From: an uncultured Gemmatimonadota bacterium
GTDB taxonomy: Bacteria; Gemmatimonadota; Gemmatimonadetes; Gemmatimonadales; GWC2-71-9
Direction of reading: 5' to 3'
Assembly: GCA_937961295.1 (NCBI GenBank)
Contig: CALGOK010000014.1
Coordinates: 10-64,009, forward strand
Length of the DNA stretch: 64,000 nt
Shown here: in pieces, positions 13,451 to 60,972 of the stretch
Layout of the letters: every line of letters starts with the position of its first letter
How positions within the stretch are numbered: the stretch's first letter is position 1
The notes under the pieces: model-generated
Seen by the model: only the letters and a program-made list of their open reading frames with translations
Told to the model about the DNA's origin: nothing
Databases searched by the model: none
Translations under genes and position numbers: made by a program

Positions 13451-13466
13451 TCACGGGAATGACAGG

Positions 13467-17892: not shown

Positions 17893-19425
<1,533 letters not shown>

Positions 19426-19426
19426 C

Positions 19427-25257: not shown

Positions 25258-25292
25258 TCGCCACCCGGTCGAGTCGAGATGATCCCGACCCG

Positions 25293-25556: not shown

Positions 25557-25665
25557 CGTCCGGCCCGCGCCACTCCGCTCACTTTCGCCCACCGGCCCCT
25601 CCCGTCGGTTGGCGGCCCCGCCGATCGAAAGGTACCTTCGCCAGATCCCCACCACGGACCTGCCG

Positions 25666-40619: not shown

Positions 40620-42416
40620 CTATTCCACCGGATCGTCGATGATCCGCGGCGTGACCATCACGATCAGGTCGCGGCGGTTCTCGCGGTTCTCGGTGAACGA
40701 GAACAGGTTGCCGACGAACGGCAGCGACGACAGCAGCGGGATCCCGGCGCGGTTGCGGGTCACGGTGGTGGTGGTGAGGCCACCGATCACCGCGGTCTCG
40801 CCGTCGCGCACCAGCAGCCGCGACTTGGCGATCTGCTTGGGGATGGTGAACCCCAGGTCGGCCGCGGCGAGCGGCTGGATCGACGAGCGCTCGGCCTCGA
40901 CGTCCATCCGGATCTCGCGCGACGCCGTCACGCTCGGGGTGACCGTCAGCTTGATGCCGGTCTCCTTGAACTGCACGTTGGCACGCGGCGCCTGGTTGAC
41001 CTGGCCGAACGACGAGGCGTCGATGACGCGCACCGGCGTCTCCTCGCCGCTCAGGATGTAGGCCTGCTGGTTGTCGAGGGTGTGGATGATCGGCACCGCC
41101 TCGACGTCGGTCAGCTCCACCCGCTCCAGCGCGCTCAGGAACGCCGTCACCGAGAAGCCGCCGATGGCGGTGGTGAACGCCAGGTCGAGCGCCGACCCGG
41201 TGATGATGGCGTCCGCGTTGGTGATCGCCGACATGGCGTTGCCGCCGAGGTTGACGATCTGCGTGTTCGGATTGTACGGTTGCCCGGTGAGCGGGTCGAT
41301 CCGCTGGATCAGCTTGTTGAAGAACTGCTCGCTGGTGCCCAGGTCGTACTTGAACCCGAGCTGGGCGAGGTCGGTGCGGTCGACGAAGATCAGCTTGGCC
41401 TGGATCGCCACCGTCGGGGTCCGGATGTCCATCCCCTGGATGAACTGCACGATCGACGGCAGCTTGGTCCGGGTGTCGGTGATGATCAGCGCATTGAGCG
41501 ACGAGTCGGCCACCACCGCGCCGCGGCCCGGCGTCAGCATCGACGCCATGGTGGCGGCCATCTGGCCGGCCTTGGCGTAGTTGAGCCGCACCATCTGGGT
41601 CTGCAGCACCTCGATCGAGTCGAGCTTGGCGAGCTCGCCCGGCGAGTCGATCCGCAGGATGCCGCCCGGCAACTCGGCCACCGAGAGGCCGTGGGCCGAG
41701 AGCAGCGCGTGGAAGGCGTACTCCCACGGCTGGTTGGTGATGGTGGCGTCGACGTTGCCCTGGACGCCGGGGCCGACCACGATGTCGCGGCCGCTGAACG
41801 CCGCGAACGCGCGAGCCACTTCCGCCCAGCTGGCCTGCTCGAAGTAGACGTCGATCGGCGGTCCGTCCTGCTGGCGCGCCTGCTGCTGTGCCGCCTTGCC
41901 CATCACCGTCCCAGCGCCGGCGGAGCCGGTGGAGTGGGTCATGGTGAGCGTCTCGCGCGCCGGTGCCGGGCGGGCCGCCACTGGCACGGCAGCCGGGGCG
42001 CGGCCGCCGAGCTGCCAGGCATCGAACGGTTCGTCGGCGTAGGCCACGGTGATCACGCCGGGCGTGTCGCCGTTCACGCGGTACGCCGGGAGCCGGTCGA
42101 ATTCCAGCACCACTCGCACCACGTTGACCTCGTGCTGGCGCACGCGGACGTCGCGGACGCTGCCGCGGCGGAGTCCGTCGTACGCGCTGGCCTGCTCGAG
42201 CGTGGCGCCCTGCAGGTCGAGGACCAGGCGGGCCGGGTCGGTGAGCGTGAAGTCGCGGATCGTGACGGTGCCTTCGACCGCGATCGCGAGCCGCGCGGCG
42301 CCGCCCGAGTGCGACAGGGTCACCGCGGTGACCTTGGCGTCGGGGGCGGGCAGTTCGGCGGCCGGGGCGGCGACGAGCGCCGCCGGCAGCAGCCAGGCAT
42401 ATGAGCGGGTGATCAT
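40620..42416 (-). CDS. pilQ: type IV pilus secretin PilQ (AMIN domain + secretin)
   Basis: 598 aa. AMIN-like N-terminus (ARLVLDLQGA). C-terminal secretin motifs GGLTTTTVTRNRAGIPLLSSLPFVGNLF and LIVMVTPRI. Confidence 0.9.
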   Translation of the reverse strand: MITRSYAWLLPAALVAAPAAELPAPDAKVTAVTLSHSGGAARLAIAVEGTVTIRDFTLTDPARLVLDLQGATLEQASAYDGLRRGSVRDVRVRQHEVNVVRVVLEFDRLPAYRVNGDTPGVITVAYADEPFDAWQLGGRAPAAVPVAARPAPARETLTMTHSTGSAGAGTVMGKAAQQQARQQDGPPIDVYFEQASWAEVARAFAAFSGRDIVVGPGVQGNVDATITNQPWEYAFHALLSAHGLSVAELPGGILRIDSPGELAKLDSIEVLQTQMVRLNYAKAGQMAATMASMLTPGRGAVVADSSLNALIITDTRTKLPSIVQFIQGMDIRTPTVAIQAKLIFVDRTDLAQLGFKYDLGTSEQFFNKLIQRIDPLTGQPYNPNTQIVNLGGNAMSAITNADAIITGSALDLAFTTAIGGFSVTAFLSALERVELTDVEAVPIIHTLDNQQAYILSGEETPVRVIDASSFGQVNQAPRANVQFKETGIKLTVTPSVTASREIRMDVEAERSSIQPLAAADLGFTIPKQIAKSRLLVRDGETAVIGGLTTTTVTRNRAGIPLLSSLPFVGNLFSFTENRENRRDLIVMVTPRIIDDPVE

Positions 42417-42925
42417 GGCGTCCCGTCCTCCGATCGACGGACATGGAAGGTCTGGTCTCGGATCGTGCCGAAATCGTTGAGGCGAAGCACGGCGATACCC
42501 GGCGAGATCTGTACCACGGTGAGGCGGCCGATGCGCTGGCCCGGGCTCACGGTGTAGCGCCGGCTGCTGCCGCGATCCTGGAAGATCGCGATCGAGCGCG
42601 ACGGATCGGACGGCTGGTAGATCACCGACGAGAGCGAGAGGTCGCCGAGCTCGGGGCCGCCGCCCGCCTCCGCGGTGAAGAGCGGCCGGAACGGGTCGCG
42701 CGGCGCCGGGTCCCAGCGATACACCTCGCGGAGCAGCGGGCGCTCGCCGGCCGCGGCCGCGGTGTCGAACGCCACCGCCACGTGGGCCGCGGGTGCCGCC
42801 GAGTCGGCGGCGGGGGTCGCCGCGGCCTCGGCAATCGGCGGCGTGGCGGCGTCGTCGGTGGCCGCGCCGCCGCCGCAGGCGGCGAGCAGCAGCAGCCCGG
42901 CCAGCAGCCTCGCGTCACGTGCCAT
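42413..42925 (-). CDS. pilP: pilus assembly lipoprotein PilP
   Basis: ATG at 42925. Lipobox LLLLAAC|GG. C-terminal YTVSPGQRIGRLTVVQISPGIAVL beta-domain. ATGA-coupled to pilQ. Confidence 0.75.
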   Translation of the reverse strand: MARDARLLAGLLLLAACGGGAATDDAATPPIAEAAATPAADSAAPAAHVAVAFDTAAAAGERPLLREVYRWDPAPRDPFRPLFTAEAGGGPELGDLSLSSVIYQPSDPSRSIAIFQDRGSSRRYTVSPGQRIGRLTVVQISPGIAVLRLNDFGTIRDQTFHVRRSEDGTP

Positions 42926-43538
42926 TGGTCGTATCCTCCGCCGGCGGCGCCTTGACGTACGTGCGCACGCTGAAGGTGGCCTGCAGCATCGAGAGGGAGT
43001 CGCCGAGGAACCGGGCCGCATTCGGATCGGCGCGCGAGATCTGCACGTTCATCGGCACGATGATCCGGCGCAGCGTCGCCACGTCGGTCAGGAACTGGCC
43101 GACCTGGTTGTAGCGGCCGATCACTGCGAAGCCATGCATGTGGGTGTCGAACGGCTCGGGGCCGGCCACCGGGGTCGCCGGCGTGTACCGCACCACCTGC
43201 AGCCCGCGCACCTTCGCGCGGATGTTGATGTCGTCGATCAGGTTGGCGACCTCCGACTGCTCCGGAACCAGCGCCCGGAGCACGCCGAGCGATGCGCCGT
43301 ACGCCTCGGCGCGCTCGCGCACCTGCTCCACCGACTCGGTGGCCAGCGAGCGCTTGGCGGAGTCGATCCGCGCCCGCACCGAGGCCAGGGTGTCGGCGGT
43401 CGAGTCGACGCGCATCATCTGCTCGCGGGCCCCGGGGAGCCCGATCATGTCGAGCACCGCCCCGGTGTAGCCGACGTAGGCGACCAGCCCGGCGATCAGG
43501 ATCAGGAGGATCGGGGTGGACCGTGGAGTCTCCGCCAT
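42915..43538 (-). CDS. pilO: pilus assembly protein PilO
   Basis: ATG at 43538. Single TM helix STPILLILIAGLVAYVGY, a coiled coil, and a ferredoxin-like C-terminus. Position between pilN and pilP. Confidence 0.75.
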   Translation of the reverse strand: MAETPRSTPILLILIAGLVAYVGYTGAVLDMIGLPGAREQMMRVDSTADTLASVRARIDSAKRSLATESVEQVRERAEAYGASLGVLRALVPEQSEVANLIDDINIRAKVRGLQVVRYTPATPVAGPEPFDTHMHGFAVIGRYNQVGQFLTDVATLRRIIVPMNVQISRADPNAARFLGDSLSMLQATFSVRTYVKAPPAEDTTNGT

Positions 43539-43540
43539 CG

Positions 43541-44221
43541 TCAGTCCTCCACCACCGACTCGAGGATCGGCGTCGTCCGGATGTAGGACGAGTCCGCCCG
43601 CGAGAAGGAGGCCTGGATGGTGAACTCGGTCAGCGCCCGGTTGCCCTCGATGACCTGCTCGGCGCGGATCGGCAGCACGTTGACCAGCCACGGGCTCGCC
43701 TCGAGCCGGCGCAGGAACGTGGTGTAGTTGCCGAGGTCGGCCGTGCGGCCGACGATCGAGATGGACGGCGGCGGGAACTCACCCGGCACCGGCGCGGTGG
43801 TCGGCGCGATGTGGGCGATCGACGTCAGCCAGGTCCCGTCGGGGAGGGCGTCGCCGATGTCCGCCAGCATGTGCGGCCAGATGTAGCGGTCGCGATCGAC
43901 CGCGCTGATCGTGCCGATCTGCGCCAGGATCGAGTCGCGCGCGCGCTCCTCGCGGCGCTTCTCGCGCATGAAGCCCTGGTAGCGCGCGTACTCGGCGCGG
44001 GCCTCGTCGAGCTCGGGACCGAGCGAGGCCATCCGCGCGCCCGAGGAGATGAACATCCAGCCGAGGCCGAGGATGACGATGGCCCAGGCGGCGATGGCCG
44101 CCATCTGCCACGGCTCCTTGATGCCGCTGGTCATCCCGCGCAGCCGCTCGCCGATCCCGGCGAACGCCGCCCCGCGCTGCACCGCCCGCTTGGCACCCGG
44201 ACGGAGGTTGATCGTGATCAT
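43541..44221 (-). CDS. pilN: pilus assembly protein PilN
   Basis: The MITINLRPG N-terminus is the PilN INLLP-type motif. One TM helix. Position after pilM. Confidence 0.8.
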   Translation of the reverse strand: MITINLRPGAKRAVQRGAAFAGIGERLRGMTSGIKEPWQMAAIAAWAIVILGLGWMFISSGARMASLGPELDEARAEYARYQGFMREKRREERARDSILAQIGTISAVDRDRYIWPHMLADIGDALPDGTWLTSIAHIAPTTAPVPGEFPPPSISIVGRTADLGNYTTFLRRLEASPWLVNVLPIRAEQVIEGNRALTEFTIQASFSRADSSYIRTTPILESVVED

Positions 44222-44234
44222 CGGTCGATCCTCC

Positions 44235-45278
44235 TCACGCCGCGGTCCGAAGGGCGAGTCCCACGGGGAGCATCAGCAGCGGCGCGACCTCGTCCATCGA
44301 CAGGCTGTCGAAGGCGTGGGGCGCCACGTCGCGGCGTTCAATCGGATGGGCCGGGGTGACCGGCACCTTGAGGCGGTCGGCGAGCACGCCGGCCAGGCCG
44401 GGCACCCGTGAGCCACCGCCGGTGAGATACACCCGCGAGAGCTGCGCCGAGGGACGCGAGGCGGTCTGCAGGAACGCCGCCGCGCGCTCGATGCCGAGCG
44501 CCATCTCCTCGCCGCGCGACGCGACGTGCGGCGCCAGCGCCGGGTCGAGGTCGCCGCCGCGCACCACGCGGTCGGCCGCCTCGGCCGGCATCCCGCGCTC
44601 GCGCTGCAGGTCCTCGCGCAGCCGCCGCACGCCGATCGGCAGGTCGCGGGTGAGCACCGGGACGCCGTCCTCGAGCAGGTTCACGATGGTGGTCTCGTGG
44701 CCGATGTTGGCCAGCGCCACCACGCCCCGCATCGCCTCGGGATAGTTCCGCTCGAACGCGTTGTGGAGCGCGAACGCCTCGACGTCGATCACCCGCGCGT
44801 CGAGCCCGATCTCGGCCAGCAGCGCCAGCTTCGACTCGACCAGCTCGCGCTTGGCCGCGACGAGCAGCACCTGCATCTCGAGCCCCTCGCCATCGGGGTC
44901 GAGGATCTGGAAGTCGAGTTCGACGTTTTCGGGATCGAAGGGCACGTGCTTGTCGGCTTCCCAACGGATCACGTCCCGGGCATCGGCTTCCTTCATCCGA
45001 TCCATCGGGATCTTCTTGATGATCACGTCGCGGCCGCCGACGGCCACGGTCACGTCCTTCGTCTTGATTTGCGCGGTGGCGAGGAGGTCCCGCACGGCAT
45101 CGGCCACGAGCCGCGGGTCCATCACTTCGCCCTCGACGATGGCATCGTCGGCAACGCGTGCGATCGCGACCTGCTCCAGGACGGGGTGGCCCGATCCGTG
45201 GTTGATCACGACGGCCTTGATGAACCCGCTGCCGATATCGAGTCCCACCGTGGAGCGCGCGCGGGGGAAGAGCGCCAT
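44235..45278 (-). CDS. pilM: pilus assembly ATPase-like protein PilM (actin-like fold)
   Basis: ATG at 45278. Starts MALFPRARSTVGLDIGSGFIKAVV and has YLTGGGSRVPGL. Confidence 0.9.
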   Translation of the reverse strand: MALFPRARSTVGLDIGSGFIKAVVINHGSGHPVLEQVAIARVADDAIVEGEVMDPRLVADAVRDLLATAQIKTKDVTVAVGGRDVIIKKIPMDRMKEADARDVIRWEADKHVPFDPENVELDFQILDPDGEGLEMQVLLVAAKRELVESKLALLAEIGLDARVIDVEAFALHNAFERNYPEAMRGVVALANIGHETTIVNLLEDGVPVLTRDLPIGVRRLREDLQRERGMPAEAADRVVRGGDLDPALAPHVASRGEEMALGIERAAAFLQTASRPSAQLSRVYLTGGGSRVPGLAGVLADRLKVPVTPAHPIERRDVAPHAFDSLSMDEVAPLLMLPVGLALRTAA

Positions 45279-45311
45279 ATGAGCCCGGATTGTGCGGTGG
45301 AGGGTTGACGT

Positions 45312-46942: not shown

Positions 46943-46979
46943 CAGCGCGAGCGGCCCGGGTCACCCCTTCAGGAGGGTC

Positions 46980-47357
46980 TCAGCTGCAGGAGATCACGCC
47001 GTCCGTCGTCGTCCCCGCACCCACCGTCACCTCGCACTGCGTGAAGCCGGCGGTGATGCTCGGGTTGGTCACCGTGGCGGTGAACGACGAGACGCTGCCC
47101 ACCATCACGTGGGTGTTCCCCTGGCTGGGGCGGAACACGTTCGAGCTGAGCGTGCTGGTGTACGTGGTCCAGTCGATGTAGTACGCCTCCTGCGCCGTCA
47201 TGATGTTGCGCAGGTCGCTGCGGACCGAGGCAAGCTTGGACTTGTCCTTGGTCGCCGCGAACTTCGGGATGGCGATCGCGGCAAGGATGCCGATGATCAC
47301 CACCACGATCAGCAGCTCGATGAGCGTGAAGCCGCGCTTGCCGTTGCCGAAGGTCAT
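46980..47357 (-). CDS. pilA: type IVa major pilin (paralog 1)
   Basis: Starts MTFGNGKRG|FTLIELLIVVVIIGILAAIAIPKF. The C-terminal Cys..Cys loop ends ..DGVISCS. Confidence 0.9.
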   Translation of the reverse strand: MTFGNGKRGFTLIELLIVVVIIGILAAIAIPKFAATKDKSKLASVRSDLRNIMTAQEAYYIDWTTYTSTLSSNVFRPSQGNTHVMVGSVSSFTATVTNPSITAGFTQCEVTVGAGTTTDGVISCS

Positions 47358-47944: not shown

Positions 47945-47961
47945 GGCACATCGGATGCCAG
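47945..47961 (-). promoter_or_regulatory. sigma-54 (-24/-12) promoter candidate upstream of the pilin genes
   Basis: The minus strand reads cTGGCATccgatGTGCc. The GG and GC elements have consensus spacing (TGGCAC-N5-TTGC). It lies about 100 nt upstream of the ATG at 47846. Confidence 0.5.
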
Positions 47962-48136
47962 AGTGGGCCGACTCAGCGCAAGTGCATGACTTTCAACGAG
48001 TTGCGCCACCTGTGGAAGGCGTCCAACAGCCCCTTTCCGGCCCCCGCGGAGCGGTAGATTGCAACGCCGTGGACGGCACGAGTCCTGCCCCGACCAGTAT
48101 CGTCGCCTCGCCGTCCAACTTCCGCCCCGGAACGCC

Positions 48137-49861
48137 GTGACCCGCTCCAGCCGCCAGCTGCTCCTCGGCCTGCTCGTGGCGCTCGTCGCCGTCACCGCCA
48201 GCGCAACCACCTTCCTCAACGGCTTCGCCCAGGACGACGTCGCCATCGTGGTCGACGATCCCCGGGCCCGCGATCCCGGCCGCTGGGGGGAGTACCTCGA
48301 CGAGGCCTACTGGCCGGCGCCGCTCCGGCGCGACCTGTATCGCCCCCTCACCTCGCTGCTGATCGGGGTGGAGACCTGGGCCGGCAACGGCGCCACGTTC
48401 CCCTACAAGCTGCTCCAGATCACCTTCTACGCCGCAAGCTGCATGGCGGTGCTGGCGCTGGCGCTGCGCCTGATGCCTACCGCCGCGGCGGTTGCCACCG
48501 GGGTACTCTTTGCCGCCCACCCGGTGCACGTCGAGGCGGTGGCCCTCGCGGTGACCCAGGCCGAGGTGATCGTCGGCCTGCTGGCCACGCTGTCGGTCAT
48601 CTATTACTACGACCGGCGACAACGCGGCTGGCTTGGCCGCCGCGACCACGCCGTCCTCGCCCTCCTCACCCTGGTGGCGGCCCACTTCAAGGAGAGCGGG
48701 GTGATGATCCCCGTCCTCCTCGCCGCGGTGGAGGCGATCCTGATCCGGGGCCCGTCGCTCTGGAGCCGCCGCCGCGAGCTGGCCACGCTGGTCACCTGGC
48801 AGACCCTGGCGGTGGTGGTCACCATCGCCCTACGCTCGCGGATCCCGTTCGCGAACGCGAGCGGCTCGTTCGTCGCCGAGGCGTTCGAGGGTATGCCGAT
48901 CGGCAGCCGGACGCTCACCATGCTCAGCGTGGTTCCGGAGTGGCTGCGCCTGATGCTCTGGCCCGCGACGCTCTCGGCGGACTATTCCCCGCGGCGGATC
49001 CTGCCGGCCGAGACGTGGGGGCTCGACCAGACGGTGGGGCTGGCGATCCTGGTCCTGATCGGGATCCTGGCCTGGCGGCTGCGGCACCGGACCCCGGTGA
49101 TCACCTTCGGGGTGGCGTGGTGCGCCATCGGGCTCTTCCCGGTGAGCAACGTCCTCCTCCCCACCGGGATCGCGCTGGCGGAGCGCACGCTCTTCCTGCC
49201 GAGCGTCGGGGCGATGCTCGCGGTGGGGGCGTTCCTCGGCGGCCTGGTGGGCGCATTCCCTGCGCGCCGCCGCGCGCTGGTCGGCGCACTCACCGCCCTG
49301 GTGGTGCTGGTCACCGTGCTCGGCATCTCGCGCTCGCGCTCGCGCCACACCATCTGGCGCAACTCGTGGACGATGTGGGCGCAGACGGTCCGCGACGTCC
49401 CCGACAGCTACCGCGCGCGGATGGCACTCGGCACGCTGCTGATGGGCGCCGGTCATCCGGACCGCGCCGTGGCCCAGTACGAGGTGGCCACCGAGCAGTG
49501 GGACCGCACGTGGACCCATTACTACCAGCTCGCCGAGTGGTACCGGCAGATGGGCAACTGCGAGAAGGCGATCCCGGCCTACCAGCGGGCGCTTTCCATG
49601 GAGGACGTCATTCCCGGACGGGCCTCGCTGGTCACCTGCCTGGTGTGGGTGGGCGACTATGCGGAGGCCAAGCGGCAGGCGATGATCGGCGTCGGCTCGG
49701 GCGCCTACGCCGGGATCTTCCGGGTGTGGCTGCGCACCGCCGACTCGGCCCAGCGTGTGGGCGCACCGCCAAAGACGGTCGGCTTCCCCGACGGCTACGA
49801 TCACCTCTTCGAGGCGGGCGCCGACTCGGCCCACGTGCGGCACGGTGTCCTTGCCGACTGA
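48137..49861 (+). CDS. polytopic GT-C-like membrane protein with C-terminal TPR region (TMTC/DUF1736-like)
   Basis: GTG at 48137 (VTRSSRQLLLGLLVALVAV), in frame with ORF 48059..49861. Motifs DD..IVVDD, YRPLT and FAAHPVHVEAVA. About 11 TM helices, then TPR-like helices (YYQLAEWYRQMGNCEKAIPAYQRAL). Confidence 0.65.
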   Translation: MTRSSRQLLLGLLVALVAVTASATTFLNGFAQDDVAIVVDDPRARDPGRWGEYLDEAYWPAPLRRDLYRPLTSLLIGVETWAGNGATFPYKLLQITFYAASCMAVLALALRLMPTAAAVATGVLFAAHPVHVEAVALAVTQAEVIVGLLATLSVIYYYDRRQRGWLGRRDHAVLALLTLVAAHFKESGVMIPVLLAAVEAILIRGPSLWSRRRELATLVTWQTLAVVVTIALRSRIPFANASGSFVAEAFEGMPIGSRTLTMLSVVPEWLRLMLWPATLSADYSPRRILPAETWGLDQTVGLAILVLIGILAWRLRHRTPVITFGVAWCAIGLFPVSNVLLPTGIALAERTLFLPSVGAMLAVGAFLGGLVGAFPARRRALVGALTALVVLVTVLGISRSRSRHTIWRNSWTMWAQTVRDVPDSYRARMALGTLLMGAGHPDRAVAQYEVATEQWDRTWTHYYQLAEWYRQMGNCEKAIPAYQRALSMEDVIPGRASLVTCLVWVGDYAEAKRQAMIGVGSGAYAGIFRVWLRTADSAQRVGAPPKTVGFPDGYDHLFEAGADSAHVRHGVLAD

Positions 49862-49876
49862 CGCGAGGCGCTGCTG

Positions 49877-52849
49877 ATGCGCGAAGCGCTGCTCTACCTC
49901 GCGTTCTTCCTCTCGGGCGCCGCCGCGCTCGCCTACGAGTCGGTGTGGACCCGCTACCTCGGCCTGCTGGTGGGGCACGACGCCCACGCCCAGGTGCTGG
50001 TGCTGGTGATCTTCCTTGGCGGGATGTCAGGCGGCGCGGCGCTGGTGGCGCGGCACACCCACCGCATCCGGAACCCGCTGGTGGGCTACGCGCTGGTCGA
50101 GGCGGTGGTCGGCGCCCTCGCGCTGGGGTTCCACGACCTGTTCGGCGCGGTCAGCGCGCTCGCCTATGACGGCATCTTCCCCGCCCTCGCCGGCGGCCCG
50201 CTGCTCGAGCCGGCCAAGTGGCTCGTCGCCGGGTTGCTGATCCTGCCGACGTCGCTGCTGCTGGGCGCCACGTTCCCGCTGATGAGCGCTGGCGTGGTGC
50301 GACTCGCGCCCGCGCGCCCTGGCCGGATCCTCGCCCTGCTCTACTGCACCAACGCGCTGGGCGGCGCGGTGGGGGTGCTGCTTGCGGGATTCCTGCTGGT
50401 GCGCATGGCGGGCCTTCCCGGAACGCTGGCTGCCGCGGCCGCCGCGAACCTCGTGGTGGCGCTGCTGGCCTATGCGGCGGGACGCACCGCGCCGGCCCGG
50501 CCCCCGCTCGACGCCGCGAGCGACGCGCTGCCGGCGCGCGAGCCGCTCACGCCGGCGATGCAGCGCCTGCTGGTGATCGTCGCCTTCGGCACGGCCGTCG
50601 CATCGTTCGCCTACGAGATCGACTGGATCCGGATGCTGTCGCTGGTGCTCGGCAGCGCCACCCATTCGTTCGAGCTGATGCTCTCGGCGTTCATCCTTGG
50701 CCTCGCGATCGGTGCGTTCGCGATCCAGCGCGCCGACCGGCTGGCCGCGCCGCTGGCCACGCTGGCCGCGGTGCAGGTGGCCATGGGCGTGCTGGCGGTG
50801 CTGACGCTGCCGGTGTACGTCGCGTCGTTCGACTGGATGTCGGCGCTGATGGCCACCTTCACCCCCACCGACAGCGGCTATGCCGCGTTCAGCGTGAGTC
50901 GCTACGCGCTGTGCCTTGCCGTGATGCTGCCGGCGACGATCTGCGCGGGGATGACCCTGCCGCTGATCACCCGCGCGCTGCTGCTCGGCGGTGCGGGCGA
51001 GGCGGCGATCGGCCGGGTCTATGCGTGGAACACCCTGGGATCGATCGTCGGGGTCGCGCTTGCCGCGCTGGTGCTGCTGCCGGCGCTCGGGCTCAAGCCG
51101 ATGCTGGTGGTCGCCGGCGCGGCCGACGTGGCGCTCGGGCTGGCGCTCTTCACGGCGCTCGGCGGCACCCGGCGCGCCGCGGCGATCGGACTCGCGGCGT
51201 TTGCCGTGATCGGCGCGGCCACCGTGCTGGTGCCGCTGGAGCGACGCCTGGTGGTGAGCGGCGTCTATCGCCACGGCGGCCAGCTCGACGAGACCTTCGC
51301 CCTTCCCTTCTACGCCGACGGTCGCACCGCGACGGTCGCCGTGGGCGAGACGGCGACCGGTTCACGATGGATCTCCACCAACGGCAAGCCGGACGCGTCG
51401 CTGGGGCCGTGGTGGCGCACCGCCTGCACCGACGACACGGCGCCGCTGCGACTCGCCGGCGACGAGGGAACGCAGCTGCTGCTGCCGATCGTGGCGCAGG
51501 CGTTCCATCCGGACGCCCGCCGCGTCGCCGTGATCGGGATGGGGTCGGGCGTCTCCTCGCACATCGTGCTCGCCCAGCCGGCCGCCCAGGAGGTGGTCAC
51601 CATCGAGATCGAGCCCGCGATGGTCGCGGGTGCCGCGACGTTCCGGCCGGTCAATGAACGGGCATTCAGCGATCCCCGCTCGCGGCTCGAACTGCGCGAC
51701 GCCAAGGCGCACTTCGCCGTCTCGTCGGGGCGGTACGACCTGATCCTCTCCGAACCATCGAATCCGTGGGTGAGCGGCGTGGCGGGGCTGTTCACCGTGG
51801 AGTTCTACCGCCGGGTGGAGACCGCGCTGGCACCCGGCGGGATCTTCGCGCAGTGGCTGCAGGCGTACCAGCTCGACGACCCGCTGGTGCTCTCAGTGCT
51901 CGCGGCGATCGACGAGGTGTTCGGCGACTGGCGCGTGCTGCAGGTGAGCAGCGGCGACCTGCTGGTGGTGGCGACCGTGGCCGACCAGCTGCCGGCGATG
52001 GCGGGCGACCGCGTGCTCGCCGCACCCGGCCTGGAGGGCGACCTCTGCCGCTTCCTGCCGCTCGACGGCCGATCCCTTGCCGCGCTGGCGTTGGCCGATG
52101 CCGCGCTGCTCCGGCCGGCGCTGACCCGCGGGCACCGCGCCAACTCCGACTTCTACCCGGTGCTCGACCTCGGCGCCGAGCGGGCGCGATACCTCCTCGC
52201 GAGCGCCTCGGGACTCCTCTCCCTCGGCTGGGACTGGCACAACCTTGCCCAGGCGCTGCTCGACCGGCGCGGCGTGGTGGCCACCGGCGACTCATTGCCG
52301 CTGGTCGACGTGACCCTGCTGCGCGAGAGCTGGGCGCGGGCGCGGCTCGATGCACCGGAGCACGCGACGGATCCGGCGATGGCGGCACCGCTCGCCCTGG
52401 TGCGCCACTGGGAGGCGCTCCGGGACGCCGCCGCCGTCGCGCCCGACTGGCGCCGCTGGCTCGACGCACACGGCCGCGCCACGCTGATGCGCCATGCCGG
52501 TGTCGCGGGTGCGATCGACGCGCCCTTCTTCGACGCCGCCGACGCCGCGGCATCGCGGCTGGACGCACCCGACGAGGTGCGCGCCGTGCTGACGTTCCGC
52601 CGCGCGGTGCAGGGCTGGGATGCCGGCGCCGCGCTGGCCGCGGCCGAGCAGCTGCACCGGTTCGGGGCGATCGGCCGACTGATCGGCGCCGACGAGGTGC
52701 GTGACGGCGCCGTGGTGATGGCAGTGCGTTCGGGCAACGGGGAACTCGCGCGCGCGTGGTTCGTGCGACTGGCGCCGGTCAGCCCCCGCGCACCGACCGA
52801 CCTGCGCACGCTGCTGCTCGAGGGGTGGCTGCTCGCGGGACGATCCTAG
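49877..52849 (+). CDS. fused polytopic membrane domain + spermidine-synthase-like (class I MTase fold) domain + long C-terminal extension
   Basis: 990 aa. N-terminus YLAFFLSGAAALAYESVWTRYL plus about 12 TM helices. SpeE-like core VAVIGMGSGVSS..VTIEIEP..DLILSEPSNPWVSG. The start is 15 nt after the preceding stop. Confidence 0.75.
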   Translation: MREALLYLAFFLSGAAALAYESVWTRYLGLLVGHDAHAQVLVLVIFLGGMSGGAALVARHTHRIRNPLVGYALVEAVVGALALGFHDLFGAVSALAYDGIFPALAGGPLLEPAKWLVAGLLILPTSLLLGATFPLMSAGVVRLAPARPGRILALLYCTNALGGAVGVLLAGFLLVRMAGLPGTLAAAAAANLVVALLAYAAGRTAPARPPLDAASDALPAREPLTPAMQRLLVIVAFGTAVASFAYEIDWIRMLSLVLGSATHSFELMLSAFILGLAIGAFAIQRADRLAAPLATLAAVQVAMGVLAVLTLPVYVASFDWMSALMATFTPTDSGYAAFSVSRYALCLAVMLPATICAGMTLPLITRALLLGGAGEAAIGRVYAWNTLGSIVGVALAALVLLPALGLKPMLVVAGAADVALGLALFTALGGTRRAAAIGLAAFAVIGAATVLVPLERRLVVSGVYRHGGQLDETFALPFYADGRTATVAVGETATGSRWISTNGKPDASLGPWWRTACTDDTAPLRLAGDEGTQLLLPIVAQAFHPDARRVAVIGMGSGVSSHIVLAQPAAQEVVTIEIEPAMVAGAATFRPVNERAFSDPRSRLELRDAKAHFAVSSGRYDLILSEPSNPWVSGVAGLFTVEFYRRVETALAPGGIFAQWLQAYQLDDPLVLSVLAAIDEVFGDWRVLQVSSGDLLVVATVADQLPAMAGDRVLAAPGLEGDLCRFLPLDGRSLAALALADAALLRPALTRGHRANSDFYPVLDLGAERARYLLASASGLLSLGWDWHNLAQALLDRRGVVATGDSLPLVDVTLLRESWARARLDAPEHATDPAMAAPLALVRHWEALRDAAAVAPDWRRWLDAHGRATLMRHAGVAGAIDAPFFDAADAAASRLDAPDEVRAVLTFRRAVQGWDAGAALAAAEQLHRFGAIGRLIGADEVRDGAVVMAVRSGNGELARAWFVRLAPVSPRAPTDLRTLLLEGWLLAGRS

Positions 52850-54408
52850 CGCCGCTGTTGCCGCGCCATCCATTCCTGCACGGGCAAGCCCACGGCATCG
52901 ACCCAGAGCGTGTCGTGCACCCGCGCGAGCGTGAGCCAGTCGCGCCAGGTGAACGGGGCGGAGAGCGAGAGGTCGGCCTCCGGCAGCCGACCGCAGCCGT
53001 ACGACCAGGTCACCTGGGCCACGCGCGGCGCGGAGCCCGGCGGGACGAGCGCGTCGCAGGGACGATCCACCACCCGTGCGAGCGCATCCGCCGGGCGATC
53101 GACGAGCACGGTGGCGAAGTCGCCGATCTCCGGCGCCGCCACCGGCAGACGTCGCGGGCCCTCGACCGGCCCGAGCACCACCAGCGTGTCCCCAGCATCG
53201 AGACCGCCCGCGAGTCGCGTGACCGCATGGTTGAGGTGCAACGCCGCCTCGGCGGTGGCCGCCGAACGCTGCGCCGGAATCGCGGCATAGAGCGGCACCA
53301 GCAGCGCCCCCGCCCCGGCCAGGCCCCGCCGCCAGCCGCCCTCGTCCCAGAGCACCCCCGTCGCGGCACCAATCAGCAGCGCCGGCGCGACGAAGAACGG
53401 CAGCGCGTAGAACGCGTCGAACTTGAACCACGGCCAGTAGAGCAGCGCACCGAGCAGCACCACCGCCGTGGCGATGGCGCCGGCCTCGACCGCGGCCCGG
53501 CCCTGCCCGCGCCGGAACGCCGCTGCGACTCCGAACCCGGCCAGCAGCAGCGCGATGAGATTGGCCGGATAGAGGAGCCGCAGTGCACCGTGACTCCCCG
53601 GTGAGATGGGGGTGACGATCGCGGCGATGTTGCCGGCGAGACGATCGACGGTGAGCGCCCCGGCGCCGTACGACATCCCGTACCCGGTCGCCACCGGCTG
53701 GCTTCGCACCACGAGGATCAGGGCAGCGACGGCAACCGCGATCAGCAGCGCCCCGGCACCGAGCGCCGGCGTGCGCGGCTCGCGCAGACGCGGCATGGCA
53801 AGCGGGCCGGGCCAGCCGCACACGGCGAGCACCACCACCACGGCGCCCAGCACGCCGACCACTTCCTTGAACAGGAAGATCACCGCGATCATCGCCAGCA
53901 TCGCCGCGGCGGCGGGCTGCCATCGCACCCGGTCGCGGTACCCCAATGCGGCGTGCAGCGCGAGCAGCAGCGCAAGCAGGCAGGCGGGTTCCGCCATGAG
54001 CTGGAGCCACGCGCGCGACGCCGGGGTGGCGACCACCAGCAGCGCCGCCGCGAGCGCCGCGCCCACCGGTGCGATGCGGAGGCGACGCGCCAGGGCGTAC
54101 GCGGCAACGGTGGCCGCGGCCATCACGCCGAAGCGCAGCAGCTGCCAGCCGTGCGACCCCTCACCGAACAGCGCGTACTGCACCGCGAAGGTGAAGTAGA
54201 AGAGCGGGTTCATCCGCCCGTGGCTGGCGTAGTAGTCAAGCAGGGCGCGGTATCCGGCCCACGCTCCGTCGTGGCGCTCGAGGATCGGGAGGAACTCGCG
54301 GAAGTCCCAGAGATCGAGCGGCAGCGGCCGGTCGGGTCGGTAGAGCAGGAACGCCAGCGCCAGCACGGCGGCGAGCAGCAGCGCGTCGAGGGCGCGCTGG
54401 CGGTTCAC
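52846..54408 (-). CDS. polytopic membrane protein, GT-C/ArnT-like glycosyltransferase candidate
   Basis: GTG at 54408 is GTGA-coupled to the GT2 stop. About 12 TM helices and a soluble C-terminal domain. Its stop overlaps the convergent 49877..52849 stop (CTAG). Confidence 0.6.
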   Translation of the reverse strand: MNRQRALDALLLAAVLALAFLLYRPDRPLPLDLWDFREFLPILERHDGAWAGYRALLDYYASHGRMNPLFYFTFAVQYALFGEGSHGWQLLRFGVMAAATVAAYALARRLRIAPVGAALAAALLVVATPASRAWLQLMAEPACLLALLLALHAALGYRDRVRWQPAAAAMLAMIAVIFLFKEVVGVLGAVVVVLAVCGWPGPLAMPRLREPRTPALGAGALLIAVAVAALILVVRSQPVATGYGMSYGAGALTVDRLAGNIAAIVTPISPGSHGALRLLYPANLIALLLAGFGVAAAFRRGQGRAAVEAGAIATAVVLLGALLYWPWFKFDAFYALPFFVAPALLIGAATGVLWDEGGWRRGLAGAGALLVPLYAAIPAQRSAATAEAALHLNHAVTRLAGGLDAGDTLVVLGPVEGPRRLPVAAPEIGDFATVLVDRPADALARVVDRPCDALVPPGSAPRVAQVTWSYGCGRLPEADLSLSAPFTWRDWLTLARVHDTLWVDAVGLPVQEWMARQQRR

Positions 54409-55148
54409 GCGCGCCGCCGCTGGCGCCGGATCGCGAGCAGCTCGAGCGGCGCGCGCAGGAAGTCGCGCGCCCGGAGCCGCGAGCCGTGGCGGTCGCTCCA
54501 GCGCTCCAGCGGCACCTCGCGGAACCGCGGCTCGGCCGGTTCCCCCGCCTCGGCGGCGAGCCGTGCGAGCAGCTCGACGTCGAAGATCCAGCGCGACGCG
54601 AATGGCGCCTCGAGGGCGCGGCGCACCGGCGCGATGTTGCGGAACAGCTTGAGGCCGCACTGCGTGTCGTACACCGGCAGCGCCAGCGTGAGTGATGCCG
54701 CCGTGGCGAACACCCGGCCGAGGTAGTGCCGGAGCGGCGAACGGACGATGTCGCGGCCGAGGAGCCGCACCCGCGACCCGAGCGCGGCCCAGGCCTCGGG
54801 ATGCGCGGCGAGCTCGTCACGAAGCCGCACCGCCTCGTCGAGCGGCGCGGCGAGGTCCGCGTCGGCGAACCCCACCAGCGCTGCACCTTCGGCCAGCGCG
54901 GTGATCATTCCCTCGCGCACCGCCTCCGCCTTGCCGCGATTGGTGCCGAGGCGCTGCACCGCCAGCTGCGCGGGGCGCGCGGCGGCGAGGCGATCGAGCA
55001 CGCCGGCGGTGTCGTCGGTGCTGCCGTCGTCGACGAAGCGAATTGCCGCGTCGGGGTGGCGGTCGAGGAACGCCAGGAACGCGTCGCCCTCGAGCCGCGC
55101 GGCCTCGTTGTAGGCCGGGATCACCAGCACCATCCCGGCGTCGCTCAT
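54405..55148 (-). CDS. family-2 glycosyltransferase, polyprenyl-phosphate sugar synthase type (ArnC/GtrB/DPM-like)
   Basis: ATG at 55148. Starts MSDAGMVLVIPAYNEAARL. Also has VDDGSTDDT, GFADADL (DxD) and YDTQCGLKLF. Confidence 0.8.
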   Translation of the reverse strand: MSDAGMVLVIPAYNEAARLEGDAFLAFLDRHPDAAIRFVDDGSTDDTAGVLDRLAAARPAQLAVQRLGTNRGKAEAVREGMITALAEGAALVGFADADLAAPLDEAVRLRDELAAHPEAWAALGSRVRLLGRDIVRSPLRHYLGRVFATAASLTLALPVYDTQCGLKLFRNIAPVRRALEAPFASRWIFDVELLARLAAEAGEPAEPRFREVPLERWSDRHGSRLRARDFLRAPLELLAIRRQRRRA

Positions 55149-55891
55149 GGGCGCCTCAGCAGGGCCAGCAGCGACACCCCGTGCGACCACGGAGCCCGGT
55201 CGCCATCGATCGCGGCGACCAGCGCTGCCGCCTCGCCGGCGAAGATCCGGTGCAGCACTCCGTTCAGCGGTCCCATCGGCACGTCGAGGTCTCCTCCCGG
55301 AGCGGCGCGGTCGCCGCGCCAGCGACGGTGCAGCGCGATCAGGGGCCGCAGTCGCGCGTTGAACGGCGAGAGCAGCCGGACCGTGACCGGCAGGTCGGCC
55401 CAGAGCGCGGCGAACTCCTCGCGCCGGTAGCGGCGGAAGTGGCCGAACGCTTCGTCGTGCGCGCTCCAGAGGGAAGGATCGGCCGGCACCGTGAGGAGAA
55501 GATGCCCCCCCGGCGGCACGGCGGCGACCGCCGCCGCCAGCAGCGCCCGATCGTCGGCCACGTGCTCGAGGACGTCGGTCATCAGCAGCAGGCCGCCCCC
55601 GGCGAGGTGGAGCCGGGCCGTGCCGGGATCGTCGGTCGCCACGAACGCCACCTCGGGGAAGCGCTCGCGTGCCAGTGCGATCGCCTCCTCCGACGGATCG
55701 AGTCCGAGCACCTGGTGGCCGGCCGCGGCCAGCGCGGCGGCGTTGCCGCCGGTGCCGCAGCCAACATCGGCGACGGCGGCTCCCGGCGCGGCCACCGCGG
55801 CGGCGATGCGCGTGATGACGGCGCGCGGGCCTGTGAAGCACCAGTGCCGCTCCTCCACCCGGGCGTGCGCCGCGAACTGCTCAGCGCGCAT
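55145..55891 (-). CDS. class I SAM-dependent methyltransferase
   Basis: 248 aa. Motif I VADVGCGTGGNA. LLLMTDVLEHV. ATGA-coupled to the GT2 gene. Confidence 0.8.
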   Translation of the reverse strand: MRAEQFAAHARVEERHWCFTGPRAVITRIAAAVAAPGAAVADVGCGTGGNAAALAAAGHQVLGLDPSEEAIALARERFPEVAFVATDDPGTARLHLAGGGLLLMTDVLEHVADDRALLAAAVAAVPPGGHLLLTVPADPSLWSAHDEAFGHFRRYRREEFAALWADLPVTVRLLSPFNARLRPLIALHRRWRGDRAAPGGDLDVPMGPLNGVLHRIFAGEAAALVAAIDGDRAPWSHGVSLLALLRRP

Positions 55892-57878
55892 CGAGCCCCC
55901 ACACCGCCCGCATCGAGTCCCGGTTCACGCGCGTGAAGCGCAGCGCACCGCCAGGCCCCGGCTCCTGCGAGAGCAGCCAGAGCGGTCCCCCGAGCGCGCC
56001 CTCGCCGAGCAGCGTGTCGCGCGCGTGCAGGTCGCGGACGTAGCGGTTGGCCGTGTCGCGGGTCACCAGCAGCGGGGCGTACACGGTGGTGCCGGCTCGA
56101 TCCTCGAGGATGCGCCGCTCGCACGCCGGCCGCAGCGGCCGACCCGGCAACACGCGCAGCGTGGTGTCGGGCGACAGGTACTGTGCCACCAGGAGGGTCG
56201 AGTCGGCGCGATGCGGCGCCACCAGCCGATCCAGCTGCGGCGCGCCCCCGCCGTCGCGCTCGACCACGGCGATCAGGCTGTCGAGCGCGCACGAATCGAC
56301 CGACCGGTAGAACCGTTCCGCATCGGGCCGCGACACGCCGATGCCCCACATCCGGGCGATCAGCTGCGCACCCCAGCTTTCGCGCACCAGCACCGTGGCG
56401 CCGCGGACGTCCATGGCCGCGGTGAGCGCGGCCACGTCGTGGCGCATCGACAGCATGCCGTTGCGGTACTGCGCGGCGCGGATCGGCAGCAGCTGGGTCA
56501 CCCCGAGCAGCAGGGCGGCGATGCCGCCGACCAGGATGCCCTGGCGGGCGGGATCGGGCCAGCCGCGTTCGCGCAGCACGGCGGGGAGCCGCGCGGTCCA
56601 CAGGGCGAGCCACGGCGCGAGCGGCAACAGGAAGCGGGGTCCCAGGTAGAAGCCGTCGTGCCAGTACGCGAGGTAGGCCGCGAGGAACAACCCCGAGCTG
56701 GCGAGCACCCACCGGTCGAAGGCCGCCAACCGCGGCACCAGCAGCAGCGCGAAGGTGGCGAACAGCAGCCCCGGAGCCGGGGTTTCGAGGAAGTGCGACT
56801 GCAACCGCAGCAGGTAGAGGTTGATCAGCTCGATGCCGCGCAGCGGCGTGTGCGGCGGCCCCCAGGGCGACTCATGGAAGCCGAGCTCGTGCGTCTTGCC
56901 CCAGAGCTCGATGTAGCCGAAGCGGAGCGGATCGCCGGTCCATGCCGCGTTGACGGCGAGCAGGGCGGCGATCGGGAGCGCGATGCCCACGCCGCTGGCG
57001 AGCAGCGGCGCCAGGTGCGGGCGCCCGAGCCGGAGTCGCCAGAGCAGCCAGGCGGCGGCGGGAAGCGCGAAGGCTGCGGCATCGAGCGGCCTGATGGTCG
57101 CCGCGACGCCGAGCGCCAGCCCGGCGAGCGCCGCGGCACCCGGATGCGGTGCCTCGTCGGCGGTCGCGCGTGCGAGCGCGAGCGCCGCGAACAGCAGCCA
57201 CGCCATGGCGGTGACGTGGTTCATCATCGAGCCGCCGAGGAACACCGTGAACGGCGCAAAGGCGAGCAGCAGCACCGCGGCGAGCTGCATCCCGGCGCCG
57301 CCCTCGAGGCGCCGGAGCAGCCGGGCGAACGCGAACACCGCCAGTCCCGCCATCCCCGGCCCGACCAGCCACGCGGCACCGAGCAGTTCGCCCGCGGCCA
57401 GCATCGCCAGGCCGCCGGCCGGGAACTGGCCGTAGAGCCGGTCGCCGGTGTCGACCAGGTGCATCGCCGCCGTGAACTCGGGGTGCGCCGGCACCGGGAG
57501 GAAGAGCCGGCCGGCGGCGAACACGCGCGCCTGCCAGAGCTGGATCACCTCGTCGATGAGGAGCGGGCGGGCGGAGAGCACCGCCTGCGCGACCACGGCG
57601 TACAGCGCCGCGGCCGCCGCCGCGAGCGTGCCGTCGGCGAGCCGGCCGCCGCGCTGCCACCGCTCGGCGATCCCGGCCCAGGCGCCCTCGCGCCAGAGCG
57701 CGGGGCGGCGGCGCAGCACGATGGCCGCGACGAGCGTGATGCCCGCGATGATCGCCCCGCCGGATCCCCACAGCGCGAGGCGCTGGCCGTACCACGGCGC
57801 CTCGTGCCCGCCGGGGATCCAGTTGGCGAGCGGCAGGAGCCCCAGCAGCAGGAGGACCAGCGCCGCGGCGCGCGCCAC
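55881..57878 (-). CDS. large polytopic membrane protein, GT-C-like glycosyltransferase candidate
   Basis: GTG at 57878 shares one nucleotide with the regulator's TAG stop. About 13 TM helices and a C-terminal soluble domain. In frame inside composite ORF 55881..58175. Confidence 0.55.
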   Translation of the reverse strand: MARAAALVLLLLGLLPLANWIPGGHEAPWYGQRLALWGSGGAIIAGITLVAAIVLRRRPALWREGAWAGIAERWQRGGRLADGTLAAAAAALYAVVAQAVLSARPLLIDEVIQLWQARVFAAGRLFLPVPAHPEFTAAMHLVDTGDRLYGQFPAGGLAMLAAGELLGAAWLVGPGMAGLAVFAFARLLRRLEGGAGMQLAAVLLLAFAPFTVFLGGSMMNHVTAMAWLLFAALALARATADEAPHPGAAALAGLALGVAATIRPLDAAAFALPAAAWLLWRLRLGRPHLAPLLASGVGIALPIAALLAVNAAWTGDPLRFGYIELWGKTHELGFHESPWGPPHTPLRGIELINLYLLRLQSHFLETPAPGLLFATFALLLVPRLAAFDRWVLASSGLFLAAYLAYWHDGFYLGPRFLLPLAPWLALWTARLPAVLRERGWPDPARQGILVGGIAALLLGVTQLLPIRAAQYRNGMLSMRHDVAALTAAMDVRGATVLVRESWGAQLIARMWGIGVSRPDAERFYRSVDSCALDSLIAVVERDGGGAPQLDRLVAPHRADSTLLVAQYLSPDTTLRVLPGRPLRPACERRILEDRAGTTVYAPLLVTRDTANRYVRDLHARDTLLGEGALGGPLWLLSQEPGPGGALRFTRVNRDSMRAVWGLDAR

Positions 57879-60972: not shown

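Follow-up and report, generated by a model that had tools for sequence, protein, structure and literature searches.

A PilS/PilR-like gene pair chained by overlaps to putative glycosylation genes at a type IV pilus locus of Gemmatimonadales

Here we describe a gene cluster on a 64,000-nucleotide stretch of DNA from an uncultured Gemmatimonadota bacterium of the order Gemmatimonadales (GenBank assembly GCA_937961295.1, contig CALGOK010000014.1, positions 10 to 64,009; this whole stretch is called the window below). Six genes on the minus strand encode a PilS/PilR-like two-component pair, two membrane proteins with the predicted fold of glycosyltransferase superfamily C (GT-C), a methyltransferase and a family 2 glycosyltransferase (GT2). 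In this soil-type bacterium they stand at the front of the type IV pilus locus. Pilin glycosylation is the most likely function of the glycosylation island that they open, with a probability of roughly one half.

Several described systems are close to parts of this locus. In the PilS/PilR model, a kinase with six transmembrane segments is paired with a regulator that combines a receiver domain (REC), a sigma-54 AAA+ domain and a helix-turn-helix (HTH) domain and activates the sigma-54-dependent pilA promoter (PMC6058289). TfpW of Pseudomonas group IV belongs to the GT-C enzymes; its first loop carries a DDx motif, and tetratricopeptide repeats (TPR) stand at its C-terminus. It is encoded next to pilA and arabinosylates the pilin; its donor is a polyprenyl-phosphate monosaccharide made in the cytoplasm, and Ser/Thr residues of the pilin are modified in the periplasm (bioRxiv 10.1101/2020.04.19.049825). 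More generally, three-component periplasmic glycosylation combines a polyprenyl-phosphate sugar synthase with a GT-C transferase whose reaction takes place outside the cytoplasm (PMC11127046). Pilin glycosylation is known from a few pathogens and influences their adhesion, their recognition by the immune system and their resistance to phages that target pili (bioRxiv 10.1101/150227). The original prediction, made from the letters of the window, knew of no description of such an arrangement. The literature search likewise found no description of an operon joining pilSR to GT-C or GT2 genes, nor of Gemmatimonadota pili.

The overlapping operon and its conservation

The operon (60972-52846) was read directly on the minus strand, and its five start/stop overlaps are exactly those originally proposed. 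The kinase stop and the regulator start share ATGA at 59260-59257. The regulator ends with TAG at 57880-57878, the G of which is shared with the GTG start (57878-57876) of the gene for the 665-aa membrane protein GTC1. The ATG of the methyltransferase gene at 55891 precedes the TGA of GTC1 at 55883-55881, making an overlap of 11 nt. The methyltransferase and GT2 genes share ATGA at 55148-55145, and the GT2 gene and the gene for the 520-aa membrane protein GTC2 share GTGA at 54408-54405. All six open reading frames (ORFs) show the third-position GC bias typical of real genes in this window of 72% GC. The relatives of GTC1 are 650-716 aa long, mostly 660-675, with a conserved N-terminus and the start codon at the equivalent alignment position, which backs the 665-aa start. 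Full-length relatives of GTC2, with 503-534 aa, back the 520-aa start.

In tight bacterial operons, neighbouring genes are most often joined by overlaps of just these sizes, 4 nt or 1 nt. Five overlaps in one genome are therefore weak evidence, and their conservation is stronger evidence. The comparative set was built from three gene-neighbourhood look-ups and a genome scan, in which the best 80 of 183 matches were retained. The scan yielded 79 loci. The set was examined with tblastn and with our own ORF logic, by which the genes were called. All relatives are metagenome-assembled genomes; the redundant loci L002/L003/L011 and L004/L025 were collapsed. Close homologues of the operon proteins all come from such genomes of Gemmatimonadota.

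The link between the regulator and a glycosylation gene is conserved across Gemmatimonadales. In about 45 related genomes, the pilR stop abuts or overlaps a glycosylation gene, and the island is flanked by pilSR and pilA. In the close clade, where GTC1 is 53-66% identical to that of the window, the order is kinase, regulator, GTC1 (at times duplicated) and then, as optional genes, methyltransferase, GT2 and GTC2. Beyond these genes follow variable genes, a convergent gene for a fusion protein together with a gene for a GT-C protein with TPR (GT-C+TPR), two to four tandem pilin genes and pilM. In 23 of the 27 non-redundant close relatives, the distance from the pilR stop to the GTC1 start is no more than +/-1 nt, the typical sequence being AAGTAGGTGGC. 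In the distant clade (clade B), GTC1 is 45-52% identical. Here a 240-aa GT2 overlaps the regulator stop and then overlaps GTC1, with the variants methyltransferase-GT2-GTC1 and fusion protein-GT2-GTC1. The best NCBIfam matches of the clade B GT2, over its full length, are AglJ, PpgS, dolichyl-phosphate hexose transferase and ArnC. The physical coupling of pilR to a pair of GT2 and GT-C genes is thus kept despite a changed gene order, which is the strongest argument for selection on the coupling.

The exact order of all six genes is less stable. It was found again only in L002, L008, L010 and probably L016, so that the expected conservation holds for a core of pilS, pilR, the GTC1 family and GT2, and not for the complete set. 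The methyltransferase and GTC2 are variable extras outside this core. The extent of the module was also drawn too narrowly at first. The six genes stand, and the two convergent genes at 48137-52849, which had been overlooked, belong to the same island. The glycosylation island between pilSR and the tandem pilA genes is variable and includes these two genes.

The overlaps could instead be explained by genome compaction, the enzymes being expressed from embedded promoters with no functional coupling to pilSR. Such junctions are common in high-GC genomes, and promoters can lie within coding sequence; for this reason the earlier claim that the overlaps leave no room for internal promoters was overstated. 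A scan for consensus sigma-70 promoters and terminators gave no promoter anywhere, even where promoters must exist, and the promoter consensus of Gemmatimonadota is not known. It gave 3 terminator-like sites against 2.3 expected, none of them at a gene junction. Against compaction stands the abutment of the pilR stop and the glycosyltransferase start, which is kept in the two clades despite their different gene order and a protein divergence of 35-55%. This argues for selection on the junction itself, and we regard compaction as improbable. We infer that pilS, pilR and the enzyme genes are carried on a single transcript that is not driven by sigma-54. At the downstream end of the operon, the convergent stop codons of the fusion gene (plus strand) and GTC2 (minus strand) overlap by 4 nt at 52846-52849, leaving no space for a terminator between them.

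The two-component pair and the pilA promoter

The first two genes were originally taken as a PilS/PilR-like pair, and the domain content agrees. The kinase matches HATPase_c (1.6e-23), HisKA (3.3e-14) and PAS (4e-8) of Pfam and has six N-terminal hydrophobic segments, read by eye, within residues ~41-196. Its match to the Pfam family 6TM_PilS covers nearly the full profile and has an E-value of 1.6e-4 and a score of 21.9 bits, under the cut-off of 27 bits. Among 37 kinases (that of the window and 36 orthologues), 18 match 6TM_PilS at E<=0.01, the best at 1.7e-9. The regulator matches Sigma54_activat (6e-70), Response_reg (6e-30) and HTH_8 (1.6e-14). Its orthologues are 73-94% identical across about 45 loci, and the kinase gene always precedes them. 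It is the sole sigma-54 activator with a REC domain found in the window. A second sigma-54 activator at 17893-19464 was ruled out as PilR, having no receiver domain and lying 28 kb from pilA.

The tandem pilin genes lie 5.0 kb from the operon, as noted before, and a sigma-54 promoter candidate had been proposed for them. In the window as a whole, the sigma-54 pattern is at chance level (59 matches with up to 2 mismatches, 61 expected). The site before pilA1 is meaningful because it is conserved across genomes, not by its frequency in the window. In 33 of 35 loci, the first pilin gene is preceded at a distance of 75-118 nt by the sequence TGGCAY-N5-KTGC, which also occurs before several further pilin copies. 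If pilA is sigma-54 dependent, as this suggests, it needs an activator, and the adjacent regulator with REC and AAA+ domains is the obvious candidate. A sigma-54 site before the kinase gene is missing in 39 of 40 loci, and no sigma-54 promoter was found before or within the glycosylation operon. The operon carrying the enzymes thus appears not to be sigma-54 driven itself, and there is no sign of its activation by PilR. The idea that glycosylation is wired to pilus regulation is therefore retained in part: the enzymes are chained to pilSR, while a promoter of the type used by PilR is absent from their operon.

Two conserved blocks lie further upstream of pilA. The consensus TTGCAAAsTMC occurs at a like distance in essentially all 32 upstream regions compared, and could be a PilR binding site or a promoter element of the divergent GT-C+TPR gene. 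Another conserved, dyad-like block (CTAAnnnGTTG...CAA...TTAG-like) is seen ~30-45 nt upstream of the -24 element of pilA. Together the two blocks could represent a PilR site and a bending site of the integration host factor type, or the promoter of the divergent gene. A weak sigma-54 candidate at 48074-48088, before the GT-C+TPR gene, is not conserved and was dropped.

It is very unlikely that the pair is instead a regulator of envelope stress or glycosylation, as PmrAB is for arn, with its proximity to pilA incidental. No NCBIfam equivalog cut-off is reached (the top match of the regulator is AtoC, with 458 bits against 714), the best matches are AtoS/AtoC, and the window kinase scores under the 6TM_PilS cut-off. 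A second kinase/regulator pair also occurs just downstream of the pilins in L044 and L079. However, the glycosylation genes have no sigma-54 promoter whereas pilA has a conserved one, the kinase has six membrane segments with 6TM_PilS detected in about half of the aligned kinases, and the linkage to pilA is conserved.

The second pairs of L044 (17929-20152) and L079 (17086-19312), both of the distant clade, lie directly downstream of the pilin array. Their regulator is 42% identical to that of the window, which has no second pair. Weaker regulator-like matches, with 28-31% identity, are present in L039, L064 and L070. Duplicated pairs are known from Myxococcus as pilS2/pilR2, which the pairs of L044 and L079 recall.

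Glycosylation enzymes, pilins and other genes of the window

The GT2 has the PAYNE, DDGSTDDT and DAD motifs on which its resemblance to ArnC, GtrB and Dpm1 was first based. It matches Glycos_transf_2 of Pfam (8e-14) and, far under the cut-offs, PpgS (2.9e-6) and ArnC (4e-5) of NCBIfam. A single-sequence phmmer search against solved structures found nothing. With a profile of 22 sequences (the window and 21 orthologues), the seven best matches in the PDB are ArnC (three), GtrB sll0501 (three) and the dolichyl-phosphate mannose synthase (DPMS) of P. furiosus, with E-values from 4e-10 to 7e-8, aligned over the N-terminal half of the protein only. At least 13 orthologues carry the Joint Genome Institute (JGI) label dolichyl-phosphate beta-glucosyltransferase, and the C-terminal motif is one that we take to be ALG5-like, as a lead only. 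By its family, the GT2 probably makes a polyprenyl-phosphate hexose. The methyltransferase, which probably modifies a sugar, has orthologues with at least 55% identity in only 8 of about 26 non-redundant close-clade loci.

Both membrane proteins had been described as GT-C-like, and structural models support this. GTC1 has no match in Pfam; in NCBIfam it matches the LA_3751/LA_3752 putative glycosyltransferase family (3.5e-8). Its AlphaFold2 model (pLDDT 90, pTM 0.91) was compared with the PDB by Foldseek. The top 21 matches are nearly all GT-C enzymes, with probability 1.0, and include ALG9, PglB, ALG12, STT3, AftA, Pmt4, PimE, AftD and ArnT. For both membrane proteins the TM-scores stay at 0.3-0.5, the modest level to be expected when one GT-C family is compared with another. 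The residues I108-D109-E110 (D/E codons 57554-57549) are invariant in 46 sequences and directly follow the third membrane helix, residues 79-99; two extra N-terminal helices stand ahead of the GT-C core. The positive-inside rule places this acidic loop on the periplasmic side. The C-terminal domain, predicted to be periplasmic, has two invariant Cys. For GTC2, the window protein matches nothing in Pfam or NCBIfam. Only 27 homologues were found, all from Gemmatimonadota, and one of them matches PMT_2. In its model (pLDDT 92, pTM 0.91), the best Foldseek match is ArnT (1.7e-5, TM-score 0.47), followed by AglB, Pmt4, STT3 and PglB. D35 of the first loop (codon 54306-54304) is kept in at least 90% of the 27 sequences, and K181-E182 is invariant. 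In neither protein, then, do the models lack the GT-C fold or the alignments a first-loop acidic residue, a lack that the original prediction had named as counter-evidence. GTC1 and GTC2 may use a polyprenyl-phosphate-linked sugar donor, as suggested by the adjacent GT2 of the polyprenyl-phosphate synthase type.

The third GT-C candidate is the GT-C+TPR protein of the convergent gene at 48137-49861. Its probable start is the GTG at 48137, although the longest ORF starts at 48059. It is a multi-pass protein with C-terminal TPR and has Pfam matches to TPR families only. In the set of 30 proteins (the window and 29 orthologues), 7 match PMT_2, the best at 1.2e-10, and 2 match TMTC_DUF1736. The residues Q31-D32-D33 (48230-48238) are invariant and stand in the first loop, after the first membrane helix. 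In nearly all loci, one or two copies of the gene adjoin pilA; in the window and in about 35 loci the gene is divergent from pilA1. The features of the TfpW type, namely a DDx motif in loop 1, C-terminal TPR and a neighbouring pilA, are thus all present. Profile-profile comparison detected no sequence similarity of GTC1 to either GTC2 or the GT-C+TPR family, which indicates that they are not recent paralogues. GTC2 and the GT-C+TPR family are weakly related (hhalign probability 70%, E 3.9e-5).

The other convergent gene encodes the 990-aa fusion, which matches NF037959 of NCBIfam (fused major facilitator superfamily/spermidine synthase) with 57 bits against a cut-off of 40 bits, and Spermine_synth of Pfam at 1.5e-11. 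At least 15 loci have the fusion gene in their island; in clade B it follows pilR directly, on the same strand. No flippase of the GtrA, ArnEF or MATE type was seen among the six genes, the two convergent genes and the called genes of L001, L002 and L004. The membrane domain of the fusion is a candidate flippase.

The two pilins of the window are followed by assembly genes that match PilM_2 (9e-59), PilN (7e-11), PilO (1e-15) and Secretin (3e-39, with AMIN). At its C-terminus, PilA1 has the disulfide loop CQVQVGSGTTTDGVIIC and then a final Ser. Across loci, pilin type is associated with the number of GT-C+TPR genes. Pilins with a short loop (CxVxVGxGxxxDGxxxC, mostly 124-125 aa) occur with one such gene in 12 loci including the window, and pilins with a long loop (CxVQVGAGAASTVDGVIxC, 127-131 aa) occur with two in 13 loci; in L064, with a long-loop pilin, the second copy is only partly detected. 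Both characters differ between sisters in the GTC1 tree (L013 versus L018, and L008 versus L007/L040), and phylogeny enters the association only through these two independent switches. The pairing looks like the cassettes of pilin alleles and accessory genes of P. aeruginosa.

The most likely acceptor, and a plausible one, is the C-terminal disulfide loop of the pilins, which is rich in Ser and Thr. For recognition of the pilin, the GT-C+TPR enzyme is the best candidate. Such a role is less certain for GTC1, and with it GTC2, because GTC1 has paralogues in a housekeeping context. In P. aeruginosa 1244 and Acinetobacter, TfpO glycosylates the C-terminal Ser of the pilin. Among more than 60 pilins compared here, first-copy pilins mostly end in one Ser after the last Cys (…CS), others in Pro, Thr or Cys. 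The C-terminal Ser was not adopted as the glycosylation site, some first pilins having these other ends. No gene of the Wzy_C/TfpO type was seen in the neighbourhoods of L001, L002 and L004. Between pilA2 and pilM, overlapping ORFs on the minus strand at 45879-46964 contain weak segments like class III signals (GATLAELVVALALLGLVGG and AGLSLPELLAAVLLLQV), with N_methyl at only 0.007. These are probably divergent minor pilins, the true starts of which would lie well inside the mechanical ORFs.

Several observations weigh against pilin glycosylation. No association with pilin type is seen for the methyltransferase, GT2 or GTC2. The window kinase stays under the 6TM_PilS cut-off. The GT2 profile aligns to polyprenyl-phosphate synthases over residues 4-126, which is only the generic N-terminal half. 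The dedicated flippase that marks the three-component class is absent from the genes surveyed. Finally, about 15 of about 88 sequences of the GTC1 family, from Gemmatimonadaceae, stand in a locus with the order gidA-GTC1-SIMPL-parA-parB, with no pilin motif within 10 kb and no glycosylation genes nearby. The family is thus not intrinsically pilus-linked, and a pilin-dedicated role for GTC1 is not established. In this locus (gidA is also called mnmG, SIMPL also DUF541), which lies near the expected replication origin, the GTC1 gene often overlaps the gidA stop. Examples are L033 (7978-15172), L050 (8016-14371) and L066 (8002-14368), and further L055, L061 and L068. Another context of the family is seen in L034 (9971-12587) and L069 (1-2461), where a pilin gene lies ~160 nt downstream of a GTC1 homologue and has a sigma-54-like site of its own, TGGTAYcgggcGTGC. 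Neither a kinase nor a regulator is encoded in the sequence available for these two loci.

These observations bear on a rival that is possible, if rather unlikely: the pair is still PilSR, and the enzymes act on an acceptor other than pilin, such as lipid A/lipopolysaccharide (LPS), exopolysaccharide (EPS) or other periplasmic or outer-membrane proteins. Their place in a pilus locus would then reflect co-expression of surface traits or genomic history. The pilin-free gidA-parAB paralogues of GTC1, the structural match of GTC2 to the lipid A transferase ArnT and the lack of co-variation of the methyltransferase, GT2 and GTC2 with pilin type all fit such an acceptor, as do the known pairs of GT2 and GT-C that modify lipid A, O-antigen and teichoic acids (PMC11127046). 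They are set against the constant position of the island between pilSR and pilA in about 45 loci, the GTC1 homologues immediately upstream of a pilin gene in L034 and L069, and the TfpW-like GT-C+TPR gene, the copy number of which changes along with pilin type. In the island itself, neither LPS nor EPS genes were seen.

If pilin is the acceptor, the following scheme can be proposed. By analogy to Pseudomonas, PilS would sense the membrane pool of pilin and phosphorylate PilR, which would turn on the sigma-54 promoter of pilA. With a single pilSR-enzyme transcript, the enzymes would be present whenever the regulators are. On the cytoplasmic side of the membrane, the GT2 would use a nucleotide sugar to attach a hexose to polyprenyl phosphate, and the lipid-linked sugar would be flipped across the membrane by a component without a match in the island. 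The GT-C enzymes, known as such from the fold of their models and assigned their activity from it, would transfer the sugar in the periplasm. The GT-C+TPR protein would recognise the pilin, and GTC1 and GTC2 might extend or vary the glycan.

A more far-reaching version can be speculated, which we hold only tentatively. Pilin glycans might be built directly in the periplasm by an assembly line of several GT-C enzymes fed with polyprenyl-phosphate hexose, without an oligosaccharyltransferase of the PglL/TfpO type. Part of the enzymes would be encoded in the pilSR operon and so be made in fixed proportion; GTC1 would represent a new GT-C family, and the pilin allele and the GT-C+TPR gene would be swapped as a cassette. 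Such an exchange would suggest that phages drive the diversification of pilus glycans in soil bacteria.

The remaining observations concern other parts of the window. At 16098-19464 (minus strand), the 523-aa sigma-54 activator without a receiver (AAA+, HTH_8) lies upstream of a gene for a 569-aa protein in which a GGDEF diguanylate cyclase is joined to domains of the 4Fe-4S ferredoxin and Fe-hydrogenase-like types, an unusual architecture for redox-sensing cyclic di-GMP signalling. Consecutive ORFs on the plus strand at 25366-26490 and 26518-26937 match the two halves of the Pfam profile Amidohydro_1, at 1-176 and 194-345. Either an amidohydrolase gene has been split or has undergone a frameshift, or the assembly is wrong here. 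The GC content falls to 0.59-0.66, from about 0.71, at ~10000-15000 and ~22000-25500; these stretches are possibly acquired DNA. The first of them contains a 1110-aa ORF with, by eye, an N-terminus like SARP/BTAD-type regulators, an ATPase and repeats, and a 491-aa membrane protein with HD-GYP motifs (HDVGK...HHERWDGRGYP). An Rfam scan of the whole window found no RNA family.

Table 1. Features of the pilus locus, with positions in the window.
Feature	Position	Strand	Basis or remark
PilS-like sensor histidine kinase, 571 aa from TTG 60972	59257..60972	-	Pfam, hydrophobic segments
PilR-like sigma-54-dependent response regulator, 460 aa	57878..59260	-	Pfam REC + AAA+ + HTH_8
GTC1, 665-aa membrane protein with predicted GT-C fold, Gemmatimonadota-specific family	55881..57878	-	AlphaFold2 + Foldseek
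Class I S-adenosylmethionine-dependent methyltransferase, 248 aa	55145..55891	-	Methyltransf_23 3e-15, plus Methyltransf_12, _11, _25
GT2, 247 aa, ALG5/DPM1/ArnC/GtrB-like, without C-terminal membrane helices	54405..55148	-	Pfam, profile search
GTC2, 520-aa putative glycosyltransferase with predicted GT-C fold, ArnT/PMT_2-like	52846..54408	-	AlphaFold2 + Foldseek
990-aa fused multi-pass membrane/spermidine-synthase-like protein	49877..52849	+	NF037959, Spermine_synth
GT-C+TPR protein, TfpW/TMTC-like architecture	48137..49861	+	TPR matches, QDD motif; divergent from pilA1
12-nt motif TTGCAATCTACC (consensus TTGCAAAsTMC)	48053..48064	-	~100 nt upstream of the pilA1 -24 element
Sigma-54 -24/-12 promoter candidate TGGCATccgatGTGC	47946..47960	-	114 nt before the start codon (ATG) of pilA1
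pilA1, major type IV pilin candidate, 125 aa	47469..47846	-	N_methyl 1.8e-10
pilA2, second tandem pilin, 125 aa, ending in ...GAGTTTDGVISCS	46980..47357	-	N_methyl 2e-9
pilM-pilN-pilO-pilP-pilQ assembly genes	40620..45290	-	Pfam; downstream of the pilins

Comparison with described systems

If the acceptor is not pilin, this is an ordinary envelope-glycosylation operon with an unusual neighbour. If it is, the locus suggests that the route through GT-C enzymes and lipid-linked monosaccharides, so far represented by TfpW only, is widespread in an abundant and little-studied soil phylum. It also gives candidates of practical interest: enzyme sets for heterologous glycosylation of pilins, a conserved sigma-54 promoter of pilA with a candidate activator site upstream, and a pairing of pilin type with accessory genes.

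The pair resembles PilS-PilR of P. aeruginosa, Myxococcus and Geobacter in domain architecture and in the sigma-54 promoter of pilA. Here, in contrast, overlap-chained glycosylation genes follow pilR, and an island of ~10 kb separates pilR from pilA.

The GT-C+TPR protein is like TfpW of P. aeruginosa group IV (Pa5196/PA7) in architecture and position. There are several differences. The TfpW gene is downstream of pilA, whereas the gene here is divergent from it. The donor would be supplied here by a GT2 synthase of hexose-phosphate-lipid and not by the DprE1/DprE2 pathway of D-arabinofuranose; no families like DprE1/DprE2 were seen among the window ORFs scanned, in a scan that was not exhaustive. 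Three GT-C genes are present instead of one. Part of the enzyme set is joined to the pilSR operon, an arrangement of which no description exists for TfpW.

The GT2 and GT-C assignments fit the scheme of the GtrA/GtrB/GtrC, ArnC/ArnEF/ArnT and GT136 pentofuranose systems. Unlike these, the island has no flippase gene that could be found, two to three GT-C enzymes and a methyltransferase, and it belongs to a pilus locus and not to a locus of O-antigen or lipid A. In protein O-mannosylation by Ppm1 and PMT of Actinobacteria and in eukaryotic PMT/TMTC, a GT2 of the DPM1 type supplies polyprenyl-phosphate hexose to GT-C enzymes of the PMT_2/TMTC type that act on Ser/Thr-rich protein segments. The matches of some GT-C+TPR orthologues to PMT_2 and TMTC_DUF1736 are weak and partial.

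PmrAB-arnBCADTEF also ties a two-component system to a GT2 (ArnC) and a GT-C enzyme (ArnT), and ArnT is the best match of GTC2. PmrAB activates a separate arn operon. In the Gemmatimonadales locus, pilSR and the enzyme genes form one operon, on which no promoter that depends on the regulator is seen, and the other arn genes are absent. Compared with all these systems, the parts of the Gemmatimonadales locus are familiar in themselves. What is unfamiliar is their arrangement and the multiplicity of the GT-C enzymes, of which at least two families are uncharacterised.

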